A DNA stretch of 64,000 bases from a virus (taxonomy: Duplodnaviria; Caudoviricetes), in IMG/VR virus record IMGVR_UViG_3300037466_003648, positions 1 through 64,000 of that record; one strand, 5' to 3'. The notes under the pieces were generated by a model. That model had not been told where the DNA came from and did not search any database. It worked only from the letters and a program-made list of their open reading frames with translations. Each line of letters opens with the position of its first letter. Within the stretch, counting starts at the first letter, position 1. Both the position numbers and the translations under genes were made by a program. Positions 54,491-62,353 of the stretch are shown one piece after another.

Positions 54491-55084
54491 ATGACCCAAC
54501 CCATCGAGTCCGAGCTGTACCTGCTCGTCGGCCCCAGTGGTGCCGGTAAGACGTCCGTGATGGACGAGTTGTACCGCGAGGGCACCCTGATCAAGGCGAC
54601 CTCTCACGCCACGCGCCCCATGCGGGAAGGCGAGTCCCAGGGCAACCCGTACCACTTCATCTCGGTGAACGAGTACAAGGGGTTGGATCTCGAAGGCCAG
54701 TTCATCGAGAAGATCGAGTACAACGGCAACCACTACGGCTTCACCCGCGGCGAAGTGCTGAACGCGTTGGAGCGGGGTGACGTTGGTCTGATCGTCGAGG
54801 GTCACGGTGCGGCGCAAATTCGCAAGCTCTTCCCCGGCCGGGTCACCACCATCTTCCTGGACCCGCCACCCCGCGAAGAGCTGGTGCGTCGGATGCGTCA
54901 GCGCAAGAACACCCAGGCGGAGATCGAAGAGCGTCTAGCGCTCATGGTGGACGAGATGAAGTTCGGTCCCGAGGCCGACTACCACGTCGACACCAACGAC
55001 TCGTTCGACCACGTTCTTACCAAGGTGCGCACGATCATCAAGATCACCCGTGCTCGCCGTCAGAACAAGGCGGAGGGTCTGTAA
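54491..55084 (+). CDS. gmk: guanylate kinase
   Basis: GPSGAGKTS P-loop; SHATRPMREGESQGNPYHFIS; YNGNHYG. Confidence 0.9.
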   Translation: MTQPIESELYLLVGPSGAGKTSVMDELYREGTLIKATSHATRPMREGESQGNPYHFISVNEYKGLDLEGQFIEKIEYNGNHYGFTRGEVLNALERGDVGLIVEGHGAAQIRKLFPGRVTTIFLDPPPREELVRRMRQRKNTQAEIEERLALMVDEMKFGPEADYHVDTNDSFDHVLTKVRTIIKITRARRQNKAEGL

Positions 55085-55085
55085 G

Positions 55086-55526
55086 ATGACGTCGCCCAAG
55101 CTCATCTTCGTCGCCTCGCCCCTGCGCCCCTTCATCCCGCCACACGTCCTGCAGATGTTCCCCGACCCGGATTGTTGGCAGCGTCAACAGTACTACCACG
55201 AGGTGTTGCAGAAGAACCTGCAGCACGCACGGGAGTGCTGTCAGAAGGTGCTGGCCGAGGGCCACACACCCATCGCGCCGCACCTGATCCTGCCGCAGCT
55301 TCTGGACGACGCCGACCCCGCCCAGCGCGAGCAAGGCATCAACGGTGGTTTGGTCTACCTGACCCGTGCCGACGAGCTGTGGTACTGGGACGACCCCACG
55401 GAAGGGATGATCAAGGAGATCCAGACGGCGTACCGCTTGGGCATTCCGGTGGTCTATATGGGCAACGTCCCCCTCACCCGCGTCATCCCCCAGGCCACTT
55501 CTACCGGCCAACTCAAGGAGTCCTAG
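55086..55526 (+). CDS. nucleoside-deoxyribosyltransferase-like (DUF4406-type) protein
   Basis: IFVASPL...PIAPHL...LDD...R..G....L.RADELW...TEGM..EI..A..LGIPV. Confidence 0.65.
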   Translation: MTSPKLIFVASPLRPFIPPHVLQMFPDPDCWQRQQYYHEVLQKNLQHARECCQKVLAEGHTPIAPHLILPQLLDDADPAQREQGINGGLVYLTRADELWYWDDPTEGMIKEIQTAYRLGIPVVYMGNVPLTRVIPQATSTGQLKES

Positions 55527-56468
55527 ATGTTCGAGCGGTACACCGAGAACGCCATTAAGGCGATCATGCTCGCCCAGGAAGAGGCTCGCCGTCTCGGCCA
55601 CAACTACGTCAGCACGGAGTTTGTCCTGTTGGGATTGATCGGTTTGGGTGAGAACAGCCCGGTCTACCGCGCCTTGGTGAAGTTGGGCGTCAGCTCGCCT
55701 CTCAAGACTGCGCGTCTTTTGGTCGAGCAGAGGGTCGGCAAGGGCTCCGGCTTCGTTGGGGTCGAGCTGCCCTTCACGCCACGCATGAAGCGCTCGATCG
55801 AAGTCTCGTGGAACACCGCCCGCGAGCTGGGCCACAACTACATCGCGCCGTTCCACGTCCTGTTCGCCATCATCGCGGAGGAAGAGAGTACAGCGCGTGC
55901 CGTGCTGTTCGATATGGGCATCATCGACCTGGAGACGTTCAAGTCGCTGGTCGTGGACGAGGCTTCGCGTGCTGCAGTTGCCAAGACCGACAGCATCTTG
56001 CAGGCGGTCAACGAGAAGCGTACCGCCGACGAGCGTCGGAACGAGAAGCAGCGTGCGTGGGACAAGAGCTACATGGCGATGGCCCATATCATCGCTGGTC
56101 ACTCTCACGACCCCAAGTTCAAGGTCGGTGCCATCGTCGTCAACGACCTCAACGGCGCCATCGTCGGTCTCGGCTACAACGGTCGCGGCAAGGGTCGTCC
56201 CAACGACCGTCTCTCGATGGAAACGGGCCAGAGCGGCTTCGTCCATGCCGAGATGAATGCCATTGCCCGTGTCTCGTGGGAGATGACGTGTACCTACACG
56301 CTCTACACCACCCTGGCGCCCTGCATGGTCTGCGCGGGTCTGGTTCTGAACAACCCCATCAAGCGGGTCGTCTACGGCCAGATCTACAACGATGACAAGA
56401 CCGGCGTCGAAGAGCTGATTGGCGGCTTGGGGGCGCATCTCGTCCACCATTGTCCGCACCATTCCTAA
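55527..56468 (+). CDS. fusion of a ClpC-type N-terminal (Clp repeat) domain and a dCMP deaminase
   Basis: [26 protein letters not shown]...[14 protein letters not shown]...ARELGHNYI; then [26 protein letters not shown]. Confidence 0.88.
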   Translation: [313 protein letters not shown]

Positions 56469-56480
56469 AGGAGCACTCCC

Positions 56481-56591
56481 ATGAAAGTTTGGCATGTTCT
56501 CGCTGGTATGGCGGGTTTGTTTACCGCCGGTCTCGCTGTTTGGGATGGTATCGGCTATGTGGCCTGGCACTTCATTCACAAGCTGTGGTAG
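56481..56591 (+). CDS. 36-aa membrane peptide
   Basis: SD AAAGGAG; hydrophobic. Confidence 0.5.
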   Translation: MKVWHVLAGMAGLFTAGLAVWDGIGYVAWHFIHKLW

Positions 56592-56627
56592 TCAGCTGAA
56601 GCACACGCTGCTTCATTTCTTCCACCG

Positions 56628-57263
56628 TTGGCAGTGGGCGCTGGCCGCCCTCTTGGATGCGCTGTGCTAGAACCGATCATCATCGACCATGACGCGAGCA
56701 TCTCGTTCACCGGCTACTGGCAGGCGGACGAGATGTACCGGCTCGTGATCGCGCGTAAGCCGGTCACCGGACCGGTCCTTGCGAGCTTGTTGATGGGATC
56801 GACTGGCACGCGCCGTTCCAACTTCCAGGTGCTCAAGACCCCACCAGGCACCAGCCCGGTAGTTCAAGCGATGGGGCTCAACCGGATGTTTGCGATGCCC
56901 CTGGAAGCGCCTGGTGAGCGCAAACCCACCAAGGCGTTCTCGGTGTACGTGTTCGACGGGAACGACACCGAGGGTAGGGGCCGCTTTTCGTGGCTGACGA
57001 GTCTGAACGTCTACCGCTGTGATTGGATGCTAGATGTCCAAAAACAGCGGATGCTCGATCAGATGGATGAAGCCTACGATCGCTGGTTCGTCATGATCGA
57101 CCACCAACTGCACAAGTTGCCGTTTGGGCGCGAAGAGGTCGGATTGTCCAAAGCGTGCGAAAACTGCCCACACCAGTTTTCGTGCATGGCGGGCAATACG
57201 CCCGGTTACCTCATTGGCGACGATCTGCCCGAAAGTGCCCGTCCGCCCCAAAAGCAGGTTTAG
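56628..57263 (+). CDS. hypothetical protein with C-terminal CX2CX5C motif
   Basis: CENCPHQFSCMAG; start uncertain. Confidence 0.6.
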   Translation: MAVGAGRPLGCAVLEPIIIDHDASISFTGYWQADEMYRLVIARKPVTGPVLASLLMGSTGTRRSNFQVLKTPPGTSPVVQAMGLNRMFAMPLEAPGERKPTKAFSVYVFDGNDTEGRGRFSWLTSLNVYRCDWMLDVQKQRMLDQMDEAYDRWFVMIDHQLHKLPFGREEVGLSKACENCPHQFSCMAGNTPGYLIGDDLPESARPPQKQV

Positions 57264-60429: not shown

Positions 60430-61299
60430 TTGCCCGAGTCTGCTATCGTTCTTGCCGACAGCATCAGCCCCAACGGTGTGCGTTTGACCACCTTGCAGGT
60501 CACCTTCGCGCGCATCGTGTTGGCGGAGGTCAACACGCACCGCCAGTTCACCCGCAGCTCGGCCAGCTCGCGAGCTATCCCCGTCGAGAAGATGATCCAG
60601 CGCTGCATCGACGACCCCTTCATCCCCGATGCGTTCGGTAAGAACCGGGCGGGCATGCAAGCCAGCGAGAACCTGAACGACCGGGACGCGCAGGTGGCCC
60701 AGCAGATCTGGCTTGAAGCGCGCGACCAAGCCGTGCGTTCGGCGAGGGCGCTGCTCAACACCGGTGTGCATAAACAGATCACCAACCGTCTGTTGGAGCC
60801 CTTCATGTGGCACACCGCGATCATCACCGCCACGGAGTTCTCCAACTTCTTCGCGCTGCGCTGTCACCCCGACGCCCAGCCCCAGATCCGGGCAGCAGCG
60901 GAGTTGATGCGTGAGGCGATGGCGAACTCGACACCCGTGCACGTCAACCATGGCGAGTGGCACTTGCCTTTGGTTAGTGGTGTCGATCTGCACGAGCTGT
61001 TGGCGGAGGGCTACGCGATGGAGCAGATCGTGCGCATCAGCGCCGGTCGCTGCGCGCGGGTCAGCTACCTCACCCACGACGGCAAGCGCGAGCCCGTCAA
61101 GGACATCGAGCTGTGCGACCGCCTGGTTACGAGCGGTCACATGTCTCCGTTGGAGCATGTCGCCACGCCGGGTGTCTTCCACAACAACGGGGAGACGAAC
61201 GAGCAGGTGCCTTTCATCGGCAACTTCAAGGGCTGGCTCCAGTTGCGCAAGACCATCCCCAACGAGCACGACTTCAGCCTGATCAAGTCGGCTGTGTAG
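60430..61299 (+). CDS. thyX: FAD-dependent thymidylate synthase
   Basis: THRQFTRSSASSRAIP, HKQITNRLLEPF, LRCHPDAQPQI, SAGRCARVSY, HMSPLEH. Confidence 0.9.
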   Translation: MPESAIVLADSISPNGVRLTTLQVTFARIVLAEVNTHRQFTRSSASSRAIPVEKMIQRCIDDPFIPDAFGKNRAGMQASENLNDRDAQVAQQIWLEARDQAVRSARALLNTGVHKQITNRLLEPFMWHTAIITATEFSNFFALRCHPDAQPQIRAAAELMREAMANSTPVHVNHGEWHLPLVSGVDLHELLAEGYAMEQIVRISAGRCARVSYLTHDGKREPVKDIELCDRLVTSGHMSPLEHVATPGVFHNNGETNEQVPFIGNFKGWLQLRKTIPNEHDFSLIKSAV

Positions 61300-61327: not shown

Positions 61328-62353
61328 ATGGCCGCACACCTCTCGCGCACGGCGATCGCACTGACCCAGGTACCCACCCCCGACCAGCGTAGTCACATCA
61401 TGGCGACGCTGGACGTGGTGTTCCGTCAGGAGCTGGGCATCTACGTCAGCACGGAGATCAGCCGGATGGCGTGCCACCCCAACATCAACGTCGCGCTGAC
61501 CAAGGCGGGACGGGTGCCCTGGTCCTACGAGTTCACCATTTACAAGATGGGCTTGGAGATCAAGGGCATCTTCAGCCCGTTGTGGGAGCCCACCCAGGTA
61601 ACGGGTAAGCGCGGTGGTGTAAAGGTCGAGCACTTCCTGGTTGATTGGCTCGTCACGGTCTACACGGTCAGCTCCAGCTGGACGGACTTCACCCCGTCCG
61701 ACATGGCCTGGGCCAGCGGTTCGCTGCTGCGCCACATCGAATCCGATCGGCTCAAAGGCTTCGAGTTCGAGTTGACCACCGAGAAGGAGCGGGACGCGCA
61801 AGGTCGAGAGATCAGTGTCCCCCGCTACCGGATCAAGAAGGTGTTCCAGTTCCAGCTGGGGCACCTGCTGAAGGCCGACAGCGAAGAGCCGGACCCCGAC
61901 CTCCAGAACATCGACCACTGGATCTGGTCGCTGGGGTCGCGTGCTGACTCGTTCGTCGTGGACGACCTGATCGATGTCTCGCCCGAGGTGCAGCTCTTGC
62001 TGCCCAGCAAGTTCATGCTTCAGCATCGCACCCAGCGCGTGACCTACAAGGACACGAACGGCAAGGATGCCGAGGAGAACGTGGACTTCACCTTGGTCTG
62101 GATGAAAGACAACTTGACCACTTGGCGCAACAAGCTGTCCACCCCTTGTCCTTACGCTCACCAAGGGGGCTTCCACGACATGAACACCACGCTTACCGAG
62201 GCGATCCTGTTCTGGAATAACAAAGTGTTGGGCAACCGCGAGCTGTGTGCGGGTTGTACCAACGAGTTCACCTGTATGGCACGGGAGTACCGTGGCGGTG
62301 GTAGCAAGTTGGAGTACCCATTGCAACTTCTGGAGCCACCCTTGGCACAGTAG
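61328..62353 (+). CDS. hypothetical protein with C-terminal CX2CX5C motif
   Basis: SD GAGGAG; CAGCTNEFTCMA. Confidence 0.75.
   Translation: MAAHLSRTAIALTQVPTPDQRSHIMATLDVVFRQELGIYVSTEISRMACHPNINVALTKAGRVPWSYEFTIYKMGLEIKGIFSPLWEPTQVTGKRGGVKVEHFLVDWLVTVYTVSSSWTDFTPSDMAWASGSLLRHIESDRLKGFEFELTTEKERDAQGREISVPRYRIKKVFQFQLGHLLKADSEEPDPDLQNIDHWIWSLGSRADSFVVDDLIDVSPEVQLLLPSKFMLQHRTQRVTYKDTNGKDAEENVDFTLVWMKDNLTTWRNKLSTPCPYAHQGGFHDMNTTLTEAILFWNNKVLGNRELCAGCTNEFTCMAREYRGGGSKLEYPLQLLEPPLAQ

Follow-up and report, generated by a model that had tools for sequence, protein, structure and literature searches.

In this study, we found that a 205-kb soil phage carries a ClpC-type N-terminal domain fused 5' of its own dCMP deaminase. 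The window, that is, the whole 64,000-nucleotide stretch of phage DNA analyzed here, contains the fusion gene (protein P0001) on its plus strand. The first-pass annotation had described a Clp N-domain followed in frame by a complete deaminase, which proved accurate: the fusion is real, and the open reading frame runs exactly from 55527 to 56468, with Clp_N and deaminase in one frame. The features of the gene and its surroundings, with the basis of each assignment, are:

54491-55084, plus strand: guanylate-kinase-like nucleotide kinase (Pfam Guanylate_kin 1.3e-23; gene call in L001)
55086-55526, plus strand: DUF7768 protein, nucleoside 2-deoxyribosyltransferase-like (Pfam 9.3e-26; phrog_355 1.9e-17)
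55515-55520, plus strand: Shine-Dalgarno-like AAGGAG, 6 nt before the fusion ATG (read from the sequence)
55527-56468, plus strand: whole fusion gene P0001, 313 amino acids plus stop (ORF list, translation, Pfam, PHROGs, AlphaFold2)
55527-55931, plus strand: ClpC N-terminal domain with two Clp_N repeats, residues 1-135, eight helices (Pfam, PDB phmmer, Foldseek, column comparison)
55932-56042, plus strand: linker, residues 136-172 (DSSP on the model, alignment, pattern analysis)
56043-56465, plus strand: dCMP deaminase core, residues 173-313 (PF00383, phrog_174, PDB, Foldseek)
56172-56183, 56244-56252 and 56319-56333, plus strand: deaminase motifs GYNG, HAE and PCMVC, respectively (published motif definitions, PMC12088426)
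56481-56591, plus strand: small hydrophobic 36-aa ORF directly 3' of the fusion (translations, gene calls)
60430-61299, plus strand: ThyX, flavin-dependent thymidylate synthase (Pfam Thy1 3.4e-14; syntenic in L005 and L108)

Pfam placed Clp_N at residues ~1-135 in two stretches (E 1.2e-17; score 64 bits, cut-off 20.7) and dCMP_cyt_deam_1 (PF00383) at residues 177-284 (E 1.1e-19), in the same frame and without an intervening stop. PHROGs gave phrog_35667 at residues 1-144 (E 3.4e-25 with the whole protein, 1.3e-25 with residues 1-150 as query) and phrog_174, dCMP deaminase, at residues 156-295 (E 8.8e-34). No AAA family was detected in the fusion protein by Pfam or NCBIfam, and both the AAA+ modules and the middle domain of ClpC are absent; at 313 aa and without AAA+ modules, the protein is not a ClpC. 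In the AlphaFold2 model (mean pLDDT 89.4), the linker lies within one continuous helix spanning residues 135-190 (DSSP; pLDDT 88-97 in the linker). Its C-terminal part is rich in E, K and R, and the linker aligns with the N-terminal extension of the closest stand-alone deaminases, which is variable and ~36 aa long. A three-copy complex prediction with the full-length protein, for which controls were not run, had a median score of 0.00. Structure search in the ESM Atlas aligned the whole fusion to full-length ClpC (query-normalised TM-score 0.58); we attribute this alignment to the N-domain combined with some generic alpha/beta domain, and not to homology between the deaminase half and a ClpC AAA module. 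The ESM Atlas feature search with the fusion returned no usable match.

The N-terminal half belongs to the cyanobacterial/plastid ClpC type, as had been proposed at first pass. Its best match among solved structures was the N-domain of Arabidopsis chloroplast ClpC1 (5gui; 137 bits, E 4.4e-39, PDB phmmer), with weaker matches to Mycobacterium tuberculosis ClpC1 (102 bits) and Bacillus subtilis ClpC (90 bits), and the cyanobacterial/plastid inter-repeat loop GxGSGFVxVExPFTPR is kept. The letters previously quoted for this domain were those of canonical ClpC and not the actual ones, although the substance was correct. Foldseek comparison gave a target-normalised TM-score (TMt) of 0.88 and an rmsd of 1.9 against 5gui, and TMt of 0.86-0.91 against the M. 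tuberculosis ClpC1 N-domain. The AlphaFold2 model has seven helices within residues 7-129 and an eighth that starts at 135 and continues into the linker, with pLDDT mostly >94. Thus, the domain resembles that of ClpC (5gui) in its two-repeat, eight-helix fold, its inter-repeat loop and its Met-Phe-Glu-Arg start, the fusion protein beginning at ClpC's own Met-Phe; it differs in the lack of AAA+ modules, in a much faster evolution and in having A-P-F-H for G-T-E-H.

This last difference was defined by column comparison with 58 ClpC N-domains, in which G-T-E-H is conserved in both repeats in >95%. Repeat 1 of the window copy keeps S-T-E-F (T30 and E31 retained), and repeat 2 has A-P-F-H at residues 107-110, with T replaced by P108 and E by F109. 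An orthologous fusion found on another contig (P0002 on L004, 56% identical over the protein) retains both repeat motifs. In B. subtilis ClpC, the Glu of G-T-E-H corresponds to E32 and E106, which belong to the phospho-arginine pocket. Identity to genuine Cyanobacteriota ClpC N-domains is ~58% for the window copy and 78% for the P0002 copy. The former departs from the ClpC consensus, most columns of which are >95% invariant, at 62 of ~145 positions, and it has small insertions in the repeat-1 loops. In the Clp_N tree, its branch has 2.25 changes per column, compared with 0.46 for P0002 and a median near 0 for host ClpCs. Residues F2, F83 and E92 are retained; they align with ClpC1 F2, F80 and E89, which have been named critical for ligand binding (PMC10030653).

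For the C-terminal half, the claim of a complete zinc deaminase with HAE and PCxxC was borne out, and GYNG is present in addition. H240-A-E242 and P265-C266-M-V-C269 were invariant among 8 relatives in the alignment, as was the allosteric motif G216-Y-N-G219 among the relatives. dCMP deaminases are defined by the catalytic motifs HxE and PCxxC and by the allosteric motif G(Y/W)N(A/G), the last being responsible for dCTP activation and dTTP inhibition (PMC12088426). The PDB matches were human DCTD (2w4l, E 7e-14), the T4 enzyme (1vq2) and that of cyanophage S-TIM5 (4p9c), with a Foldseek TMt of 0.74-0.79 against S-TIM5, and the closest named families were phage dCMP deaminases. Thus, the window protein shares with known dCMP deaminases (T4 Cd, S-TIM5 4p9c, human DCTD 2w4l) the CDA fold, the HxE and PCxxC zinc site and GYNG, and with those of phages also the location in a nucleotide module with a thymidylate synthase; it differs from all of them by an additional 135-residue foreign domain and a roughly 40-residue helical linker at the N-terminus. 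The genomic context, namely ThyX and a nucleotide kinase in the same module, together with the closest families, speaks for a dCMP to dUMP activity. Reported DCTDs have single-domain protomers of about 20 kDa, and every reported dCMP deaminase is a ring-shaped homohexamer (PMC12088426); by this family rule, the fusion would form a homohexamer as well.

The fusion gene appears to lie inside a long co-directional operon. The TAG stop of the upstream DUF7768 gene (55524-55526) directly abuts the fusion ATG, and the same TAG-ATG abutment was observed in L004. The nucleotide kinase further upstream also matched NCBIfam TIGR03263 (4.5e-37, under the family cut-off). Downstream, the small hydrophobic ORF is conserved (GYVxWHFIxKxW) in L005, a relative with a stand-alone deaminase, and L004 has a small hydrophobic ORF at the equivalent place. 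Between 49 and 64 kb, no promoter-like site was found, and terminator-like sites occurred at chance rate. No ClpS, NblA or ClpP gene and no second copy of Clp_N or of the deaminase was found in the window phage.

That the fusion might be an assembly chimera or a gene-calling artefact, joining the 5' end of a bacterial clpC to a phage gene, is conceivable in principle, since clpC reads of other organisms map onto the conserved first 100 bases (loose ends at 55569-55619) and could give rise to misjoins. Such an explanation is practically impossible here and for practical purposes refuted. The junction, checked specifically for a chimera, is intact: an identical protein occurs on three other contigs, assembled from two Logan runs and one JGI metagenome; 55390-56018 is spanned by a 629-bp contig of yet another run; and a 43,470-bp contig of another study represents a strain variant that covers 55000-57000 ungapped with 13 single-base differences. 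In total, at least five assemblies carry the fusion without a stop or frameshift. The divergent orthologue P0002 has the same layout, the Shine-Dalgarno site is at the correct distance, and the GC3 of the fusion gene resembles that of the rest of the phage, which also marks the fusion as old and kept. In the strain variant, six of the seven differences within the gene are synonymous, compared with 35% of possible transitions, and so are all four differences in the Clp_N half (chance about 0.015). Thus, in this natural variant, purifying selection acts on the fusion gene.

Fusions of this architecture are extremely rare. The database check suggested at first pass showed that it is not common: P0002 was the sole other Clp_N-deaminase fusion in two very large protein collections, and the combination was absent from 50,697 phage records. 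None of the 984 matching phage records covered ≥80% of the fusion query, and among 254 retrieved proteins P0002 alone contained a deaminase. A single-protein pattern search of IMG/VR for relatives found none, and alignment search of the same database yielded only distant stand-alone deaminases. The 12-kb neighborhood had no megablast match among phage records.

The closest relatives (L005 and L107) have a stand-alone deaminase of 181 aa, 74-76% identical to that of the window, at the syntenic position (guanylate kinase, DUF7768, deaminase, small hydrophobic ORF and, further on, ThyX). Therefore, a phage gene acquired the Clp_N part at its 5' end. Whether this happened once or twice was addressed by phylogenetic comparison of the two fusions, whose deaminase halves are 71% identical and whose phages have GC contents of 62% (window) and 47.5% (P0002), about 14 points apart. 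The deaminase tree gave an unresolved polytomy of P0001, P0002, P0007 and P0009, in which forcing both fusions together costs 5.7 lnL (AU test p = 0.11); the Clp_N tree, in which both fusions sit on very long branches, was unresolved too (AU test p = 0.51). The two fusions share three derived residues, whereas 44 changes are confined to P0001, 18 to P0002, and 15 differ in both; on this alignment, sharing is not above chance. The two fusions may even be independent captures onto the same enzyme, which would be convergent evolution.

The N-domain had also been proposed as a clue to the host lineage, and this holds at the level of the phylum Cyanobacteriota in a wide sense, non-photosynthetic branches included, and not for anything finer. 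ClpC N-domains of Oscillatoriaceae, Synechococcus, Melainabacteria/Vampirovibrionia and Sericytochromatia are about equally close, so no finer host assignment follows. The best 80 genomic ClpC N-domains, which came from Oscillatoriaceae, Synechococcus, Prochlorococcus, Gastranaerophilales, Obscuribacterales and Sericytochromatia, were 75-80% identical to P0002 irrespective of class.

The Clp system was also found in related phages in another form. Two more distant relatives with the same module carry a ClpS gene (Pfam ClpS, E 3.3e-20) located 2.5-3 kb upstream of the deaminase in both. These relatives are fairly distant (deaminase 70-73% identical, GC 48.6%), and the module common to them comprises UDG, kinase, deaminase and ThyX, with seven collinear shared genes. 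An IMG/VR search with the phage ClpS (P0255) found none. ClpS docks on the N-domain of ClpA/ClpC, and cyanobacterial ClpS1 and ClpS2 interact with ClpC (PMC7966870; bioRxiv 10.1101/2024.06.12.598358). The earlier premise that ClpC N-domains dock adaptors is thus sound, the known cyanobacterial ones being ClpS1, ClpS2 and NblA (review PMC7966870). In the literature searched, contact residues are given on the ClpS side, and no report was found that defines ClpS-binding residues on cyanobacterial ClpC. Since the relatives carry ClpS and the window phage a ClpC N-domain, two branches of these phages hold both sides of one interaction.

What could such a fusion do? Our preferred reading, held tentatively and short of an even chance, is that the deaminase works, is probably a hexamer and presents ClpC N-domains that act as a sink for adaptors or ligands of the host ClpC. 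The deaminase half would supply dUMP to the phage ThyX. A 5' fragment of clpC would have been grafted in front of the short N-terminal extension of the deaminase, so that the last helix of the N-domain, the extension and the first deaminase helix form, in the model, one long helical stalk. Because every studied dCMP deaminase is homohexameric, the fusion would display about six ATPase-less N-domains, which may act as a multivalent competitor for the docking partners of the host ClpC N-domain. ClpS-type N-degron adaptors would be the first candidate ligands, with NblA, other adaptors or directly bound substrates as alternatives. Host ClpC-ClpP proteolysis might then be shifted during infection, and the enzyme half would keep its metabolic role. 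We infer hexamer formation, binding and the effect on proteolysis alike. The roles suggested at first pass, namely titration of host ClpC adaptors, protection or localization of the deaminase, or coupling of dTMP supply to proteostasis, have the same standing. The presence of ClpS in relatives of the window phage is in favor of a decoy. A broader version, in which soil phages, probably of Cyanobacteriota, attack the docking of ClpS on the ClpC N-domain from both sides, by ClpS or by a high-avidity, six-fold N-domain trap for host adaptors on a rigid stalk, seems rather doubtful to us.

A simple decoy has difficulties of its own. A decoy for partners that co-evolved with a near-invariant host surface should stay close to that surface; therefore, the divergence of the window copy (58% identical to ClpC, compared with 78% for P0002, with G-T-E-H of repeat 2 lost) counts against it. 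The considerable distance of the ClpS-bearing relatives is a further weakness. Nor does the decoy idea account for the attachment to a deaminase of a domain that other phages keep free; a gain in avidity from the hexamer is our own conjecture. The same divergence, in a domain that is nevertheless folded and under purifying selection (58% identity, long branch, lost repeat-2 motif), is the pattern of a new function, and it would suit an N-domain that serves the deaminase itself as an interaction head on a rigid stalk, its ClpC-related specificity partly or wholly rewired. Through this head, the enzyme could be linked with other nucleotide enzymes of the phage in a dNTP-synthesis assembly; alternatively, the head could tune hexamer assembly or allostery, or couple enzyme lifetime to host ClpC adaptors. 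We regard this as fairly unlikely. It is consistent with the tight cluster of nucleotide metabolism genes (kinase, deoxyribosyltransferase-like protein, deaminase and ThyX), with the replacement or lengthening of the N-terminal extension that is already present in the closest relatives with a stand-alone deaminase, and with the promiscuity of Clp_N in Cyanobacteriota, where it has many unrelated fusion partners. However, the P0002 copy, 78% identical to genuine ClpC, suggests that, in its own lineage at least, ClpC-like specificity was retained; none of the results points to a phage partner, the relatives function with a stand-alone deaminase, and ClpS in related phages points to the host Clp axis and not to nucleotide metabolism.

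The N-domain might also be a passenger, a captured host fragment that happened to supply an open frame and a good start site and is tolerated as a soluble N-terminal cap or spacer without a specific ligand, slowly decaying in the window lineage. The accelerated divergence and the loss of the conserved repeat-2 motif would agree with decay, as would its presence in only two lineages and its absence from the closest relatives. On the other hand, the fold is intact (pLDDT >94 over most of the domain), the composition is fully phage-like and the fusion hence old, neither stop nor frameshift appears in the assemblies, the natural differences in the Clp_N half are all synonymous, and the domain has been kept in two phages as far apart in deaminase identity and GC content as those of P0001 and P0002. 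Thus, we consider a mere passenger unlikely.

A precedent for the sink that we prefer is the ATPase-less mycobacterial ClpC2, a molecular sponge for ClpC1 ligands (PMC10030653), so the general statement at first pass that isolated Clp-repeat proteins can be decoys was correct. Like ClpC2, the window protein contains a motorless copy of the ClpC N-domain, with equivalents of F2, F80 and E89. However, ClpC2 is cellular, self-regulating and DNA-binding and soaks up a cyclic peptide antibiotic (PMC10030653), whereas the window domain is phage-borne, of cyanobacterial type and fused to an enzyme.

If true, a two-sided attack with independent captures would represent a novel kind of device against proteolysis. 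How phages interfere with AAA+ proteases of their hosts is known largely from small inhibitors of model phages, and to our knowledge almost nothing is known about such interference with cyanobacterial ClpC. This protein is essential, and little of its adaptor repertoire has been charted so far (review PMC7966870). With its ClpC N-domain, made by a phage, soluble by nature and carried on an enzyme, the fusion may serve as a ready-made bait for ClpC adaptors and substrates; baits based on P0001 and the more ClpC-like P0002 could reveal ClpC-docking partners and which of them matter in infection, and the ClpS genes of related phages offer a second, independent handle on the Clp axis. The fusion is also a clean natural example of a host gene fragment that was grafted, from the host start codon, onto a phage enzyme and then kept.

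Finally, Clp_N modules were compared in other phages and in cells. Stand-alone phage ClpC-type N-domains without ATPase are already known (phrog_35667, Myrna gp251, Phabba and the viral contigs L093-L102), and the N half of the window protein is 40-42% identical to those of the Mycobacterium phages Myrna (gp251) and Phabba. Unlike the window protein, these stand on their own at 170-275 aa, belong to actinobacterial or other types, and in no case carry a deaminase. Judged from these matches, phage capture of the Clp_N domain is recurrent. ClpN fusions have also been mentioned in conflict systems (PMC7159879). Cellular Cyanobacteriota proteins use the same N-domain type (45-56% identical) as a module on unrelated domains, although they are cellular rather than viral and none of those among the 254 retrieved proteins includes a deaminase; their Clp_N partners include EAD1, DnaJ, Roadblock/LC7 and SHOCT, and tandem arrays of 4-9 repeats occur as well.

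The fusion of a ClpC-type N-domain to a dCMP deaminase, reported in the first-pass annotation, was borne out: a single open frame encodes both domains, which were recognized by Pfam, PHROGs, solved structures and Foldseek, and the interpretation offered there as a whole was supported in part.

window:55527-56468, + strand, fusion gene (protein P0001), single open frame of 313 codons

AAGGAG lies 6 bases upstream of this frame, whose ATG directly follows the stop codon of the preceding gene. Pfam assigned residues ~1-135 to two Clp_N repeats (E 1.2e-17) and residues 177-284 to the dCMP/cytidine deaminase zinc-binding domain (E 1.1e-19), and PHROGs matched the protein to phrog_35667 (stand-alone phage Clp_N proteins of unknown function; E 3.4e-25) and phrog_174 (phage dCMP deaminase; E 8.8e-34). 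Among solved structures, the N half was closest to the N-domain of Arabidopsis chloroplast ClpC1 (5gui, 137 bits), with lower scores for Mycobacterium tuberculosis ClpC1 (102 bits) and Bacillus subtilis ClpC (90 bits), and the C half matched the dCMP deaminases of human, T4 and cyanophage S-TIM5. The AlphaFold2 model (mean pLDDT 89.4) comprised an eight-helix N-domain, an unbroken helix at 135-190 and the deaminase alpha/beta core; Foldseek gave target-normalized TM-scores of 0.88 for the N-domain against 5gui and 0.74-0.79 for the C half against the S-TIM5 deaminase. The HxE, PCxxC and GYNG-type motifs that define dCMP deaminases, catalytic and allosteric (PMC12088426), are present as H240-A-E242, P265-C266-x-x-C269 and G216-Y-N-G219, all three invariant among relatives. 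The sole low-confidence stretch of the model (pLDDT <50) was the loop directly after GYNG, residues 221-238; its sequence is nearly invariant among relatives, and oligomerization or effector binding may be needed for it to become ordered.

Neither an assembly chimera nor a common architecture, two possibilities that could have undermined the observation, was borne out. The record (205,180 bp, the window being its first 64 kb) is complete with direct terminal repeats, and the phage was found in soil and rhizosphere metagenomes, at least about half of its sampled words being present in seven listed runs (shares 0.49-1.00) from seven different studies, two of these runs possibly being the record's own source. 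An identical protein occurred on three other contigs (two Logan runs and one JGI metagenome), a 43,470-bp contig from a further study spanned 55000-57000 gap-free with 13 single-base differences, and a 629-bp contig from another run bridged the upstream gene, N-domain and junction. Seven of the 13 differences fell within the gene. Six of them, among which are all four of the Clp_N half, were synonymous, whereas only about 35% of possible transitions would be. GC content and GC3 of the Clp_N part (0.61 and 0.86) equalled those of the deaminase part and neighboring genes. Thus, the fusion is old, compositionally fully phage-adapted and under purifying selection. With regard to rarity, none of 984 phage records matching either half covered at least 80% of the fusion protein, and one other full-length match emerged when 5.8 billion clustered proteins were searched from word seeds: P0002, a protein of 306 aa with 56% identity, encoded on a contig of 1,060 bp. 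Exhaustive HMMER scanning of 1.84 billion cluster representatives gave at least 150 matches, listed down to 140 bits; since a fusion with recognizable halves should score >200 bits, the architecture is essentially confined to one small cluster. When the deaminase half was compared by BLAST with all 254 retrieved proteins, the only proteins with a deaminase, apart from P0001 and P0002, were seven stand-alone enzymes. The domain architecture is new; its components, a dCMP deaminase of phage type and a ClpC N-domain carried by a phage, are each of a known kind, and we consider the fusion moderately surprising and experimentally very tractable.

The fusion gene lies in a nucleotide module comprising UDG, Dam, a guanylate-kinase-like kinase, a DUF7768 protein (phrog_355) resembling nucleoside 2-deoxyribosyltransferase, the fusion, ThyX and a HAD hydrolase. 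In the form of UDG, kinase, deaminase and ThyX, this module is common to two more distant relatives, the 83-kb ENA contig of P0029 and contig L108 of P0025 (the latter with seven genes collinear with the window's phage), whose stand-alone deaminases are 70-73% identical to that of the window. In both, a gene of the ClpS family precedes the deaminase by 2.5-3 kb. Features in and around the module are as follows:

window:52450-53946, + strand, 498-aa coiled-coil protein between PcfJ and the kinase, matching the C-terminal domain of ribosomal L7/L12 over a short stretch (E 1.3e-07)
window:56481-56591, + strand, small hydrophobic ORF of 36 aa directly after the deaminase
window:56628-58380 and 61328-62353, + strand, ORF translations of several otherwise dissimilar small proteins ending in a similar Cys motif, CxxCxxQF[SA]C[ML]AG
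L108:6963-7382, + strand, ClpS-family gene (Pfam ClpS, E 3.3e-20)

The ClpS-family proteins are 139 and 101 aa long, the former with a ~60-residue N-terminal extension. Phage ClpS genes seem to be little described, PHROGs holding only phrog_27368, labelled 'ATP-dependent protease'. No NblA, ClpP, ClpS or second Clp_N was found in the window's phage, and ClpS and Clp_N did not co-occur in any phage DNA sequence examined.

Comparison with relatives suggested how the fusion arose. The closest deaminases, P0007 (75-76% identical over the core) and P0009 (74%), are stand-alone proteins of 181 aa, each extended at the N-terminus by a variable stretch of about 36 residues. Their loci, on contigs L005 and L107, are syntenic with the window: L005 has the order Dam, PcfJ, guanylate-kinase-like, DUF7768, deaminase, small hydrophobic ORF and, further on, ThyX, and in L107 DUF7768 abuts the deaminase as in the window. 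Thus, the N-domain was added to the 5' end of a pre-existing phage gene, the linker being the counterpart of the old deaminase extension. As the fusion opens with ClpC's own Met-Phe-Glu-Arg, the captured fragment included the clpC start codon. The contig of P0002 resembles the window in its upstream TAG-ATG abutment and downstream small hydrophobic ORF, whereas its phage GC is 47.5% compared with 62%. The two N-domains are only 51% identical; P0002's copy is 78% and the window's 58% identical to genuine Cyanobacteriota ClpC N-domains. Relative to the consensus of 58 ClpC N-domains, 44 changes were found in P0001 alone, 18 in P0002 alone, 15 in both but different, and three were shared and derived. 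AU tests neither rejected nor supported a common origin (p = 0.11 for the deaminase tree and 0.51 for the Clp_N tree), and the two fusions go back either to a single old capture with later losses or to the same enzyme having acquired the domain twice. The C-terminal motif of the 36-aa ORF, GYVxWHFIxKxW, is conserved in L005 (54 aa). Four more distant stand-alone deaminases (P0025, P0029, P0030 and P0033) lack the N-terminal extension; they are instead prolonged by a C-terminal tail in which the motif CC...GPxCGxY is conserved and may provide an additional metal site.

The first-pass annotation also took the N-domain as a pointer to host lineage. Its type points to Cyanobacteriota as the putative host phylum; the N-domain comparison and tree did not separate photosynthetic from non-photosynthetic classes. 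Two independent, weak hints agree with Cyanobacteriota: the best-scoring named phage matches of the DNA polymerase are Microcoleus and Pseudanabaena phages (only 26-27% identity), and the HIP1 octamer occurs 32 times compared with about 7 expected.

The fusion joins a complete deaminase with all defining motifs to a complete, selected ClpC-type N-domain through a confidently predicted helix. ClpC N-domains are docking platforms for adaptors. Without a motor of its own, the N-domain homologue ClpC2 can serve as a sponge (PMC10030653), and dCMP deaminases are ring hexamers (PMC12088426). As the likeliest of the readings considered, though a possible rather than a probable one, we tentatively suggest that the fusion would form a hexamer displaying about six N-domains, which would compete with host ClpC for its N-domain ligands, while the deaminase half would go on supplying dUMP to ThyX. 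The leading candidate ligand would be ClpS, an N-degron adaptor that docks on the ClpA/ClpC N-domain; cyanobacterial ClpS1 and ClpS2 work with ClpC (PMC7966870).

The strongest counter-argument to such competition is the heavy divergence of the window's copy from an almost invariant host surface: its branch is 2.25 changes per column, compared with a median near 0 for host ClpC terminal branches, host ClpC N-domains being almost invariant. Its changes are concentrated in two regions, the short third helix of repeat 1 and, in repeat 2, helices 6-7. At the position of the conserved G-T-E-H, repeat 2 has A-P-F-H and thereby lacks the glutamate corresponding to E106 in the second phospho-arginine pocket of Bacillus subtilis ClpC; T30 and E31 of repeat 1 are retained. 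Conservation is good in helices 1, 2 and 5 and in the inter-repeat loop of cyanobacterial type. Also retained are F2, F83 and E92, the counterparts of the mycobacterial ClpC1 residues that make up the ligand groove (F2, F80 and E89; PMC10030653). This divergence would fit at least as well with an interaction domain rewired to serve the enzyme, which we regard as rather unlikely, or with a tolerated passenger, which appears a little more doubtful still; the conservative copy in P0002, on the other hand, fits competition for ClpC ligands better than either.

Free Clp_N proteins were also found in phages of other hosts (Myrna gp251, Phabba and viral contigs L093-L102). The stand-alone Clp_N proteins of the ten IMG/VR contigs are 169-275 aa long and of non-cyanobacterial types; one is apparently actinobacterial and several have a MFERYTEKARRVIF-type N-terminus, indicating that phage capture of this domain recurs across host phyla. 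Database matches outside the window included numerous proteins, most of them cyanobacterial, that are built from ClpC-type N-domains and lack an ATPase (P0003, P0010, P0011, P0054, P0057, P0121-P0125 and P0131). Some contain 4-9 Clp_N repeats arrayed in tandem, reaching 1,762 aa and 8 matched stretches; in others the domain is joined to EAD1, DnaJ, Roadblock/LC7 or SHOCT. Identity of these N-domains to that of the window is 45-56%.
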